Of a stretch of DNA of 64,000 nt, positions 242 through 63,999 are shown one piece after another. The stretch comes from Candidatus Micrarchaeia archaeon (GTDB lineage: Archaea > Micrarchaeota > Micrarchaeia > CAILAH01): NCBI GenBank assembly GCA_038874595.1, contig JAVZCB010000004.1, positions 65,061 to 129,060 on the forward strand, in the 5' to 3' direction. The notes under the pieces are model-generated. The model had not been told where the DNA came from. It ran no database searches and worked only from the letters and a program-made list of their open reading frames with translations. The translations under genes were made by a program, and so were the position numbers. Numbering within the stretch: position 1 is the first letter of the stretch; every line of letters starts with the position of its first letter.

Positions 242-1183
242 TTATGTATAACTTACAGATGCAGTGCGGCTTGGGGCTAGCAGCGTGTTAAAATTGATAT
301 TTATCTGCAACGGCCACGCTATCTCTTCTATAAAAGACCTAAGTATGCCGCGCTGTGGTGATATCTCGCACCTATCATACTCTTTTATGCCTGCAAGCTC
401 TGCCGCTTTATTAAACGCGCGTGTCTCATTGCCAAGCTCATCGACCAGCCCTATACCATACGCCTGCCTGCCTGATAAAATCCTGCCATCAAGCACCTGC
501 TCAAACTTCTCATCGCTAAATCGTGGCCGGCCGTGCCTGTTCTCATACACTGCATTGCGGAACTCATCGAATATTTCATCAATGATTGACTGCAGCACTG
601 CACGCTCTCTTTCAGTCAGGTTATGGCCCACATCACCTATCCCCTTAAGTTCTCCTGAAGTGATATCTGTATAATTTATGCCAACCTTACTGAACAGCCC
701 TGCGAGAGATATGGTTGTTGTCCGGACCCCTATGCTGCCAGTTATTGCTTCTGGCTCTGACACTATATAATCAGAGCCGGCAGCTGCATAATAACCACCA
801 GAAGCAGCCATACTCCTGAAATATGCAACAACCGGCTTTCTCGAATGCTTAACACGCTCATATATTTCCCTGCTTGGGATTACCTCACCACCTGGTGAAT
901 CGATATAAAGGACAATTGCCTTAACATCTTCACGGGATTCGGCAGAATCAATCATCTTAATGATATCTCTCGCGCTTGGTGGCGGCTCTGGTGAAAACAC
1001 ACTAGAAGGCCCTGAGTAATCAGATATCTCGGACTCTATCTTAACTTCAGCTATACACGGCTTTGAAAGAAAGACAATCCCAAGCACCTGTCCTATAGCT
1101 GCAAGCAGGACTGCACCTACAGCAAAGATGATCATTAAAAGCGCAATCATACCTAATATTGATATACCCTGCGGCCTTTTCAT
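242..1183 (-). CDS. sppA: Signal peptide peptidase SppA (peptidase S49)
   Basis: N-terminal TM; IDSPGG, AASGGYY, GSIGV and GLVDELG motifs. Confidence 0.93.
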   Translation of the reverse strand: MKRPQGISILGMIALLMIIFAVGAVLLAAIGQVLGIVFLSKPCIAEVKIESEISDYSGPSSVFSPEPPPSARDIIKMIDSAESREDVKAIVLYIDSPGGEVIPSREIYERVKHSRKPVVAYFRSMAASGGYYAAAGSDYIVSEPEAITGSIGVRTTTISLAGLFSKVGINYTDITSGELKGIGDVGHNLTERERAVLQSIIDEIFDEFRNAVYENRHGRPRFSDEKFEQVLDGRILSGRQAYGIGLVDELGNETRAFNKAAELAGIKEYDRCEISPQRGILRSFIEEIAWPLQININFNTLLAPSRTASVSYT

Positions 1184-1240
1184 AATGAAAGTTCGGGCCT
1201 ATAATTATTATAAGCTTCATCTTTTAGAAAAAGCGATATT

Positions 1241-13715: not shown

Positions 13716-13884
13716 ACGGCACACATCTACAGTTGCCGTTGGTGGTAGGGCCAAGCAAGCAAAGATTTGCGGGCGCCGGCTCCCTACAGCTTCGGTTGCC
13801 GGGGGTTGATAAGGGTATGCTTTCGGCATCGGCCGAAAGATGCGCCTTTTGCTTTTTGCAAAAGTGCGCCGCGCTGGGGGCCCT
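13716..13884 (+). ncRNA. Unassigned GC-rich multi-hairpin RNA directly upstream of tRNA-Ser
   Basis: Closing helix AGGGCC/GGCCCT, a C(UUCG)G tetraloop and several perfect hairpins; no credible ORF. Confidence 0.45.
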
Positions 13885-13887
13885 TAT

Positions 13888-14010
13888 GCCGAGGTGGCAG
13901 AATCCGGTAATGCGTACGCCTTGAGAGCGTATGTCCGAAAGGACTTAGGAGTTCAAAAGGAATCACTGGCGATTTTCTGCTGGTGGTCGATGAGAATCTC
14001 CTCCTCGGCG
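13888..14010 (+). tRNA. tRNA-Ser(TGA) with a 39-nt intron at position 59/60 (13958-13996)
   Basis: Acceptor GCCGAGG/CCTCGGC+G; anticodon arm TACGC-CTTGAGA-GCGTA; long variable arm GTCC-GAAA-GGAC; T stem AGGAG/CTCCT; splicing restores TTCAAAT. Confidence 0.92.
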
Positions 14011-61474: not shown

Positions 61475-61653
61475 AGCCCCGTCGTCTAGCGGTCAAGGAT
61501 GGGAGGCTCTGGACGAAGGGAGCCAGCGCCCCCTTCGCAACCCCGGCTACCCGTAGCTGACTACGAAGGGAGCCAGCGCCCCCTTCGCAAAAAATACACA
61601 TAACACAAAAAAGGGGAAACCTCCAGACAGCGGTTCGAATCCGCTCGGGGCTA
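61475..61653 (+). tRNA. tRNA-Gln(CTG) with a 106-nt intron at 37/38 (61513-61618)
   Basis: Acceptor AGCCCCG/CGGGGCT+A, with the A1-U72 pair typical of archaeal tRNA-Gln; GGAGG-CTCTGG|A-CCTCC; AGCGG-TTCGAAT-CCGCT. Confidence 0.93.
61513..61590 (+). repeat. 28-bp exact direct repeat inside the tRNA-Gln intron (61513-61540 and 61563-61590)
   Basis: ACGAAGGGAGCCAGCGCCCCCTTCGCAA twice, separated by 22 nt. Confidence 0.95.
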
Positions 61654-61680
61654 CTGCTTATTTTTTGCTTGTAATTTTAA

Positions 61681-63999
61681 TCAATCAAGCTCAAGCCAGA
61701 ATTCAACAACACCACTACTGCCTTTATACGAATCCAGATTTGATGGGACACGAATATCATAGTTAGGATTCCTTGTGCCATTTATAACACTCACAAATGC
61801 AACATCCTGGTTCACTGTAATATTGAACTCAGGTACCCCCTGTGATGAATCCCATACGATCCCTGTCTTGTAATCTGTTTGTGTTGAGGAGTTTGCAACA
61901 GGTATATAAGGTACAAGACGGCCGTATAGCGATATGTTCTGAGTGTTAAGAGGATTACTACCGTCAGGTGCATAAAGTTTGGTGATGCTGTCCCTCTCAC
62001 CACTCATGTTAAGAAGGATATCTAACTCGTTGAAATCGATTGTTGAGTTTGTGCCTAACGTGCTCCTGCCAAGGGCCACCAAACTTGCCCAATTTATGCT
62101 TGCATCACCGTTTATTGCATACACCTTGCCACCATTCTCCTTTTTCCATAACCACCTGTAAAATACCCAGCTGTCATTCCTCGCCAGGAGTATTGTACCA
62201 CTTACATTACCAAAGAACCTGTGCCATACCCTCGAACAGGTGTATGTACACCCTGAAAGGCCGTTTTCATACCAGTTATACCATCTATCACACCGGTCAT
62301 ATGCTCCCGTGTTTCCATTTTGAAGATTGTTTATGTCCAATGCATTAAAGCATACGGAATTATCAGACAAAGAAATGTTTGTGCTCAAAGCAGATATTTT
62401 GATACCGTTAACACTGCTGCCTATAATGGTGTTGTTAATCAAAGTATTGTTTGAGCTTGTTAAGAAGTTAATGCCATACTGCGATAAGTTGAGCGTGTTG
62501 TTTATCAATACGTTATTGTGCGCTGAACTTAAGTAAACATTTGCTCCACTGTTGTTAATTATCCTGTTCCCGATTATGGTGCTTAAAGAAGTAGATGTTA
62601 TCCTGATCCCGTAGTTTGAGGATGTAACGGTTGAATTAACAATGGTAACATTCCCTGAGATGCCTGCAAAAACCCCAGAATCAGAGCAGTTAGTGAATAA
62701 GCTGTTTTCTATTGATATGTTCTGTGAATTGGTGACTATAAGGCAATCACCAAACGTATCTTTAGAGGTAACATTCCTTGCAAAAACGTTATCGAAACTT
62801 TCAATATATATTCCGTTCTCATCATTGTTGTGTAATAGGTTGTTCGCCAAGTGCGCAGTTGTGCCCAATAATAAATGTATACCATAGAATGTATTATTAA
62901 ATATATGGTTACTTGAGATATTCAAGCCAGAGGAGGCATCGGATAAAAAGCCGCTTATCTCGCTAAGGTATAGTGTATTGTTAAATATCGTAATATCCTC
63001 ACTGCTAAGTGCAAGCATAGCGTAATCATAATTAAGCACATTACAGTTTTTCACTGTCACATTCCTTGATGACTCATCTATGAAAACACCGTATGAAGTT
63101 AAAGTTCCATTATCCTTGATGTAGTAATTATTACAGTCAAATGTTACGTTTTCAGCCTGGATATAAACACATGCATAACCCCCATAGCTCCCTACAGGGT
63201 TCGGTGCACCCGTGTAATTTTGTGTCTGCACATATGTTCCCGGGGAAGTTATAACCGGGCAGTTTGTATTTTCAAGAATAGCATATGTAGATAATGGATT
63301 TATGTTTTTGAGTGAGAGTTGATTGCTAATCACGTTTGGTGTGCTGTTTAGCCGTCTCCACCCAGATGAGTTATATTTCCAAAGCTCAAGCTCTTGTTCG
63401 TTATACCCAGATAACTCGCTATCAAACCATCTCCACGTTATTTTATCTATGTTCACCACACCGCCTTCAGGTGTTATGTTTACATACTTATTCATGAAAC
63501 TTCTGGTATGGGACGGCAAAGCAGATGGCTGGCCTGACCACTTTATACCATAAGCCTCTTCGAAAAGGAGATTGCCATAAATATCCTCTATATCTAAAAC
63601 CGTATAATTCTGATAGTTGCCAGAGGGATTATCTATAGTCAAATTCAAAATGCTAAGATTATACAATTGATTATCATCAGCGCTAACAAGAAGGTCAAAT
63701 TGTTGGTTGTTGTAAAGATGAGTGTTTTTAATGCGTATGCGATCGGAAACAAAAACTAATATACCAATGTTGCTGTTGTATATATCACTTTGGGTTATGT
63801 TGGTTGATATAGTATATTGTAGTTGGATACCATATTGCGTGTTGTTCCCAAATATATTGTTAATCAGTTCATTAAATGACGAGGAAATCGAATCGTAACC
63901 TATTGAGTTGTTGTAGATACTGTTATTAATAAAATATATGTTAGCCGCAGAATAAAGGAAATACCCGATTGAATTGTTATGCACTGTATTGTTAATCAC
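61681..63999 (-). CDS. Parallel beta-helix (NosD/CASH-like) surface protein, N-terminus outside window
   Basis: Many N-N-T-I/GI-x-L repeats, Asn-rich with NxS/T sequons; ORF runs off the window edge. Confidence 0.85.
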   Translation of the reverse strand: MINNTVHNNSIGYFLYSAANIYFINNSIYNNSIGYDSISSSFNELINNIFGNNTQYGIQLQYTISTNITQSDIYNSNIGILVFVSDRIRIKNTHLYNNQQFDLLVSADDNQLYNLSILNLTIDNPSGNYQNYTVLDIEDIYGNLLFEEAYGIKWSGQPSALPSHTRSFMNKYVNITPEGGVVNIDKITWRWFDSELSGYNEQELELWKYNSSGWRRLNSTPNVISNQLSLKNINPLSTYAILENTNCPVITSPGTYVQTQNYTGAPNPVGSYGGYACVYIQAENVTFDCNNYYIKDNGTLTSYGVFIDESSRNVTVKNCNVLNYDYAMLALSSEDITIFNNTLYLSEISGFLSDASSGLNISSNHIFNNTFYGIHLLLGTTAHLANNLLHNNDENGIYIESFDNVFARNVTSKDTFGDCLIVTNSQNISIENSLFTNCSDSGVFAGISGNVTIVNSTVTSSNYGIRITSTSLSTIIGNRIINNSGANVYLSSAHNNVLINNTLNLSQYGINFLTSSNNTLINNTIIGSSVNGIKISALSTNISLSDNSVCFNALDINNLQNGNTGAYDRCDRWYNWYENGLSGCTYTCSRVWHRFFGNVSGTILLARNDSWVFYRWLWKKENGGKVYAINGDASINWASLVALGRSTLGTNSTIDFNELDILLNMSGERDSITKLYAPDGSNPLNTQNISLYGRLVPYIPVANSSTQTDYKTGIVWDSSQGVPEFNITVNQDVAFVSVINGTRNPNYDIRVPSNLDSYKGSSGVVEFWLELD

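Follow-up and report, generated by a model that had tools for sequence, protein, structure and literature searches.

A tandem hairpin module in the intron of a micrarchaeal tRNA-Gln(CUG) gene belongs to a family-specific repeat at tRNA gene boundaries

The stretch of DNA analyzed here (the window, 64,000 nt) corresponds to positions 65061-129060 of contig C4 in the genome of a Candidatus Micrarchaeia archaeon, whose assembly comprises 918 kb in seven contigs and is 93.5% complete. It carries a tRNA-Gln(CUG) gene that is interrupted by an intron at the canonical position 37/38 (Table 1). With the intron taken out, the exons form a complete tRNA-Gln cloverleaf in which all stem pairs are standard. 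The cuts at 61512/61513 and 61618/61619 follow from the bulge-helix-bulge (BHB) geometry, with three unpaired bases on each side of the central helix, and these cuts fix the anticodon as CUG. ARAGORN, run with introns allowed, reported the same gene and the same intron length. Owing to repeated bases at both junctions, however, it slid the intron register by 2 nt and called the gene tRNA-Pyl(CUA); a second gene, at C1:93393-93557, received the same call. An amber suppressor, as the Pyl(CUA) calls would imply, was rejected as an annotation trap, the BHB geometry yielding CUG at 61475-61654. The Rfam tRNA model missed the tRNA-Gln(CUG) gene altogether. The source genome has a single gene for this tRNA, and its only other tRNA-Gln gene reads UUG. 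Thus, the CUG gene must be spliced to be used. The T6 run directly after the gene is likely an archaeal terminator. The convergent 772-aa ORF has no oligo-T run of its own before the tRNA gene; on the minus strand, the A/C-rich intron stretch reads as two T6 runs, approximately 70-90 nt past the stop of this ORF, and the intron tail might conceivably double as its terminator. Elsewhere in the window, positions 1010-1239 (minus strand) gave a weak Rfam match to the group I intron model, which at 22 bits (E 0.2) stays below the gathering score of 50.

Table 1. Features of the tRNA-Gln(CUG) locus (positions in the window) and the splicing endonuclease gene of the source genome
Feature	Position	Strand	Basis or remark
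tRNA-Gln(CUG) gene with intron	61475..61653	+	cloverleaf reading; ARAGORN in shifted register
5′ exon	61475-61512	+
3′ exon	61619-61653	+	discriminator A at 61653
Exon strand of central helix (61507-61510, tRNA positions 32-35) and 5′ bulge (61511-61513)	61507..61513	+
Intron, 106 nt, position 37/38	61513..61618	+	sequence reading, ARAGORN, enforced fold
Unit 1, 28 nt	61513..61540	+	exact repeat; model R1, 56.7 bits
Unit-1 hairpin, 24 nt, GC-rich	61514-61537	+	10-bp stem, one A.C mismatch, 4-nt loop
'Spacer', 22 nt, remainder of the conserved C-rich module tail	61541..61562	+	same tail at unrelated tRNAs
Spacer hairpin, 6 bp	61544-61559	+	fold
Unit 2, exact copy of unit 1, tail absent after 3 nt	61563..61590	+	model R1, 32 bits, hairpin part only
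A/C-rich unstructured stretch	61591..61612	+	sequence, fold
3′ strand of central helix (61613-61616) and two intron bases of 3′ bulge (61617-61618)	61613..61618	+
T6 run	61661..61666	+	sequence reading
Convergent 772-aa ORF	61681-63999	-
EndA, the only such gene of the genome (L181)	C7:3-733		matches ARMAN-2 ε2 enzyme 4FZ2, 5e-44 and 3e-40

The initial annotation had singled out the intron for its length and its internal repeat. Both observations were borne out. At 106 nt, the intron is more than twice as long as the other tRNA introns of the window (approximately 38-42 nt), and the described order of a 28-nt unit, a 22-nt spacer, an exact second unit, and an A/C-rich tail holds at the coordinates given in Table 1. 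The 28-nt unit occurs exactly twice and nowhere else in the window, and no such repeat arose in 100 shuffles; even with up to three mismatches allowed, the two units of the Gln intron are the only copies in the 918-kb genome. The period of the repeat is 50 nt. The hairpin of unit 1 begins 1 nt past the 5′ cut and is followed by the first 3 nt of a conserved tail. The intron tail as a whole (61591-61618, 28 nt) is A/C-rich apart from four G's. When the cloverleaf and the splice motif were enforced, the intron folded into three hairpins, namely unit 1, spacer, and unit 2, in agreement with the earlier claim that the units and the spacer each fold. Folded alone, the intron reached z = -3.9 relative to shuffles.

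We compared the locus with 40 relatives by BLAST. The intron part matched many places in genomes of the same family, and the matched places share one module in which a C-rich tail follows a hairpin. From 24 copies of this module, we built a covariance model (R1) and applied it at a threshold of E <= 1e-3. The module was detected in all nine genomes of the family, with two to nine hits in each and nine in the source genome, and in none of the 52 genomes from 19 other (sister) families of the class. Within the window, only the two units of the Gln intron score. BLAST against phages and plasmids and a scan of viral contigs yielded no module copy. A metagenome scan with the 19-mer spanning the exon-unit junction returned 15 matches, all of them chance matches in coding DNA, and a scan of a genome collection with a 16-mer, which is too short to discriminate, returned more than 119 chance matches in GC-rich bacteria. 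In the literature, we found no description of this repeat family.

According to counts made by reading the sequences, approximately 44 of about 50 module loci lie at tRNA genes. At these loci, the hairpin is always the end nearer to the mature tRNA sequence, with the tail on the far side. The module opens 37/38 introns in genes for Gln(CUG), Gln(UUG), Arg(CCG), Leu, and, in the source genome, Trp, and it likewise opens T-loop introns. At two loci, it follows a duplicated tRNA 5′ fragment. In inverted orientation, it lies at the 3′ ends of introns or, in 5′ flanks, adjoins the first base of the tRNA, and one copy lies just past a tRNA 3′ end, in the 3′ trailer. At nine flank loci, the Rfam tRNA model places the tRNA end 0-3 nt from the end of the R1 hairpin. 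In the two loci with a duplicated fragment (L035 on contig C17 of relative G005 and L039 on contig C21 of relative G002), the first 20-24 nt of the tRNA are repeated, and the module plus about 50 nt lies between the fragment and the full gene; the duplicated fragments could represent a D-loop intron or the footprint of an insertion. A further inverted module was recognized by eye in the window at 13790-13887 (minus-sense), where it adjoins the first base of a tRNA-Ser gene (13888-14009). Its tail is followed by a hairpin that is split by a second, nested module, and because of this nested insert the copy reaches only 9.4 bits with R1 (E 1.5).

Arrays of two to four modules, with identical units within each array, are present at several loci in the source genome and its relatives. 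Those of the source genome occupy one T-loop intron and the 5′ flanks of three tRNA genes. As a rule, an array opens with a hairpin, and its last element is again a hairpin, either truncated or interrupted by another module nested in it. Identity among the three flank arrays is 94-97%, and each is 85% identical to the Gln cassette over approximately 60 nt, an alignment that runs across unit, tail, and unit. Thus, the 'spacer' of the Gln intron is the module tail. Judged by these sequence comparisons, the repeat-spacer-repeat arrangement is the standard array form of the family and not peculiar to the Gln intron. The spacer had also been connected with the acceptor ends of its own tRNA through shared short words. 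Such 5- and 6-mers do exist, but they belong to the tail motif that recurs at unrelated tRNAs, and the first 11 nt of the spacer equal the family consensus except for one T. Since the letters in question are those of the conserved tail consensus, the match to the acceptor stem is a coincidence.

The orthologous Gln(CUG) introns of the family differ in size and unit content. The intron of relative G005 measures 57 nt and holds one unit, that of G003 measures 104 nt and holds two units of variant sequence, and that of G007 measures 180 nt with its unit split by a nested insert. Outside the family, no 37/38 intron was found in tRNA-Gln(CUG), and in the same genus no ortholog of the gene was found, only the UUG gene being seen in G001 and none in G002. 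A counterpart of the Gln cassette lies in a different tRNA gene of a different genus. The tRNA-Arg(CCG) intron of G007 contains unit 1 (28/28 identical), the start of the tail, and approximately 20 nt of unit 2, and its 3′ 75 nt are those of the Gln intron of G007 itself; the tRNA-Arg(CCG) gene of the source genome has an unrelated 34-nt intron. Near-identical intron sequence is thereby found in different isoacceptors, Gln(CUG) in the source genome and Arg(CCG) in G007. It does not amount to the transfer of a whole intron in sense orientation, as modules also occur inverted and outside introns. From the shared 5′ and 3′ parts of the Gln and Arg introns, we conclude that the introns are mosaics and that the cassette moved or was converted between tRNA genes. 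The C-terminal domain of EndA is only 77-84% identical between these genera, and a neighboring protein is 60% identical even within the genus. Measured against the EndA value, the 28/28 identity of a non-coding sequence across genera goes beyond what neutral drift would be expected to preserve and suggests recent exchange or selection. The recent duplication that had been proposed for the intron is only half right: the order unit, tail, unit is the usual array layout of the repeat, and the same layout is found in the Arg gene of another genus.

Across 55 distinct copies, the covariation of the hairpin amounted to 0.19, compared with 0.10 for shuffles (0 of 500 reached the observed value) and at most 0.10 for slid controls. 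One inner pair of the hairpin alternates between G-C (27), C-G (19), and U-G (7), and the pair adjoining the G-run differs by subfamily (A-T, C-G, T-A, or G-C). These data support a structural constraint on the hairpin; they fall short of proof because the copies share ancestry and were aligned by fitting them to the model. The G-run itself occurs in GGG and GGGG variants. A triplex code linking stem and tail was discarded, as the tail is constant in the subfamily of the Gln unit while the pair at the G-run varies among A-T, C-G, and T-A, and no covariation between stem and tail was seen.

The two strands of the module are not equivalent. Of 57 copies, 50 have a hairpin that is more stable on the strand running against the hairpin-to-tail direction. 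For the Gln unit, the values are -13.0 kcal/mol in intron sense and -18.2 kcal/mol on the opposite strand, because the A.C mismatch becomes a G.U pair. Perfect copies differ by approximately 1.3 kcal/mol between the strands, which represents the intrinsic part of the asymmetry. As the mismatches are inherited within subfamilies, the asymmetry rests on few independent events. It speaks against the intron RNA being the target of selection and is suggestive of an origin at the DNA level or on the opposite strand.

The central helix of the splice motif comprises 4 bp, formed between the exon strand and four G's of the intron, of which two are G-C and two are G-U pairs. The anticodon stem closes the 3′ bulge. 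On the 5′ side, the distal helix h′ that would close the bulge is lacking, and the hairpin of unit 1 is found there instead. The enforced fold confirms the initial view that the motif is reduced to the central helix and the 3′ bulge and that the outer helix is lost. With respect to the strict hBHBh′ motif, the position 37/38 and the 4-bp central helix are present, but the two bulges are not each closed by a helix. All parts of the relaxed hBH (BHL) motif are intact, namely the exon helix provided by the anticodon stem, one bulge on the 3′ side, and the central helix. The fold with enforced cloverleaf and motif was calculated at -66.6 kcal/mol and the unconstrained fold at -74.0 kcal/mol. Lying 7.4 kcal/mol above the minimum, the productive fold is therefore not the predicted optimum.

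The ε2-type EndA of ARMAN-2 cleaves strict as well as relaxed hBH motifs in vitro (PMC3239211). The EndA of the source genome matches residues 151-261 and 264-387 of this enzyme (4FZ2), which is its best match among solved structures, in keeping with the assignment of the genome to a Micrarchaeia-type lineage. The gene is cut by the start of contig C7 and contains a frame-shifting run of N, and its N-terminal unit lies outside the assembly; orthologous EndA ORFs in the family encode 385-446 aa. We classify the enzyme as a three-unit ε2-type endonuclease, with the N-terminal unit cut off by the contig end in the source genome. The genome also contains an RtcB gene and an RNase P RNA. Splicing of the 106-nt intron via the relaxed hBH motif by an ε2-type EndA and RtcB is plausible. 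In all module-bearing 37/38 introns of the family, the hairpin starts 1 nt past the cut, except for 2 nt in two Gln(UUG) genes. Because of this fixed distance of 1-2 nt across the family, we infer that the unit-1 hairpin may act as a surrogate for the missing inner splice helix.

Our preferred explanation, which we regard as somewhat better than even, draws on the observed anatomy of the intron, the family distribution, the covariation of the hairpin, the cassette in a second tRNA gene, and the enzyme genes. According to this model, the intron body consists of approximately 1.5 periods of a 50-nt, two-hairpin module, composed of the 24-nt GC hairpin and the C-rich tail with its small hairpin. 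The module is specific to the family and to tRNA boundaries. Arrays would arise through local amplification or through recombination between hairpins, and whole cassettes would be exchanged between tRNA genes. The ε2-type EndA and RtcB would remove the intron through the relaxed hBH motif (anticodon stem, 4-bp helix, 3′ bulge), with the unit-1 hairpin, 1 nt past the 5′ cut, replacing the missing inner helix. The remaining cargo would be a selfish or neutral passenger. Against this model stand the failure to find a mobilizing enzyme in the 93.5%-complete genome, the 28/28 identity of the unit across genera, and the position of the splice-competent fold 7.4 kcal/mol above the unconstrained minimum. 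The content of the Gln intron resembles a passenger that travels between sites more than an RNA device made for a purpose.

The strongest competitor, to which we give roughly one chance in four, places mobility at the DNA level. Here, the module would be the terminal part of a hairpin-ended, MITE-like element that inserts at tRNA genes in either direction; only insertions with a cleavable motif would survive inside genes, and the active folded strand would be opposite to the intron sense. The exon-proximal position of the hairpin at intron starts, inverted intron ends, inverted 5′ flanks, and the 3′ trailer fits such an element, as does the better fold of most copies on the opposite strand. 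The tRNA 5′ fragments duplicated on either side of the element at two loci resemble an integration model proposed earlier (PMC3293823). The strand asymmetry is, however, partly intrinsic, and the mismatches behind it are shared by descent. Moreover, no transposase, TnpB, or integrase was found in the source genome and no phage or plasmid copy of the module in the databases searched. None of the mobilizing enzymes looked for (Y1 transposase, TnpB, reverse transcriptase, tyrosine recombinase) was detected in the 93.5%-complete genome, while the control genomes were positive. This applies to PF01797 and PF07282, which served in the test for a Y1 transposase or TnpB partner, and to tyrosine recombinases of the Phage_integrase family, which were detected in 14/14 control genomes. 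A bolder version, which we hold to be equally tentative, would make the two-hairpin module the working end of a so far undescribed mobile element that targets tRNA maturation junctions, gives rise to new BHB introns or reshapes existing ones by bringing along a splice-site helix, and spreads without a recognizable transposase, reverse transcriptase, or integrase. The splicing endonuclease and ligase might drive such a spread by running backwards, or it might depend on hairpin recombination or on enzymes of a host or virus.

We consider it improbable that the excised and probably circularized intron is a functional, stable three-hairpin RNA, protein-binding or acting as a decoy, for which the tRNA gene would be the vehicle. 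The identity of the unit in two genera and the covarying hairpin agree with this idea, and circularization is known for archaeal tRNA introns (PMC3326292). In contrast, the number of units varies among orthologous introns (one, two, or split), and the module also occurs in the opposite orientation outside introns. In addition, the sense RNA contains the A.C mismatch, the second unit lacks the conserved tail, and neither an Rfam match nor a C box or K-turn-like motif was found in the intron. Likewise, a guide RNA or an expression vehicle, as the initial annotation had envisaged, gained no support, there being no C box, Rfam match, or antisense target, and the A.C mismatch lying in the intron sense. 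Much less probable still is a one-off local duplication or assembly artefact without wider meaning. The units are exact and are the only copies in the source genome at <=3 mismatches, but unit-tail-unit recurs in an independent assembly in another tRNA gene, related arrays are common in the nine assemblies, and the 22-nt tail is absent from the second copy, so that a simple tandem duplication does not account for the period-50 repeat. Hardly credible, and rejected, is the reading as a miniature CRISPR-like array or as a guide RNA that the intron carries and that is directed at tRNA-Gln: the repeat-spacer-repeat order with hairpin repeats and the 5-6-mers shared with the acceptor ends might evoke it, but the 'spacer' is a conserved tail of only 22 nt that also stands beside unrelated tRNAs and does not represent a variable insert, the genome has just two repeats and no array with this repeat, and the intron lacks a box C, contains a single CUGA (61557-61560), and has no Rfam match at E <= 1.

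The module resembles bacterial REP/BIME and MITE-like elements in that its units are short, GC-rich, palindromic, and multi-copy, occur in clusters, and have covarying stems. Bacterial REPs, however, lie outside genes, dispersed in the regions behind them, and are linked to RAYT (Y1) transposases. The family described here is associated with tRNA boundaries, and the search of the source genome for a Y1 transposase was negative. Among the options initially listed, a REP/MITE-like element comes closest, the unit being part of a family-specific hairpin repeat present at many tRNA genes.

Similar in host and enzyme is the system of ARMAN-2 (Candidatus Micrarchaeum acidiphilum; Fujishima 2011, PMC3239211; 4FZ2), which belongs to the same type of lineage and has the same ε2 type of enzyme. 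It likewise has many split tRNA genes, introns at 37/38 and in the T-loop, and splice motifs lacking one flanking helix. Its introns as published, however, are short, with 13-25 nt in the assays, and no build-up from repeated modules is described for them (PMC3239211), whereas the body of the Gln intron is a tandem hairpin repeat common to tRNA genes and tRNA flanks. The transposed BHB tRNA introns of Thermoproteales (Fujishima 2010, summarized in PMC4090602) are comparable in that near-identical intron sequence stands in tRNAs of different isoacceptors. Those introns belong to another phylum, and in the present case the shared piece is not an entire intron but a small hairpin module, which occurs in tandem arrays and also inverted at tRNA 5′ flanks and intron 3′ ends. 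The tRNA disruption model for Caldiarchaeum subterraneum (Sugahara 2012, PMC3293823) shares with two loci of the relatives the duplicated tRNA 5′ fragments beside an insert. The C. subterraneum element, however, measures 1.8 kb and encodes a recombinase (PMC3293823), whereas the insert described here is non-coding and about 50-150 nt long, and no recombinase was found in the source genome.

How archaea acquire and enlarge their tRNA introns is still being worked out, and a 2026 survey of these introns in Asgard archaea identified no general route of arrival (bioRxiv 10.64898/2026.10.13.758758). The Gln intron shows growth by module amplification and, in addition, the exchange of a recognizable cassette among different tRNA genes, in a lineage whose ε2 endonuclease tolerates relaxed motifs. 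The position of the module, fixed 1 nt from the cut, suggests that an inserted hairpin may supply the missing half of the splice signal. The repeat offers an entry point for studying the growth and spread of tRNA introns in archaea. If the mobile-element reading were true, the module would be an archaeal counterpart of the eukaryotic 'introners'. Taken alone, the Gln locus is of modest weight, as it is one more site of the repeat family and not a new RNA device.

At six module loci, no tRNA was seen. Locus L027 (G001:C37:24800-25300) contains two module copies away from any recognizable tRNA, each next to a repeated mini reading frame of 14 codons on the opposite strand. At locus L037 (G008:C31:3350-3850), a stretch containing box C-like and box D-like motifs, possibly a small guide RNA gene, precedes a module copy.
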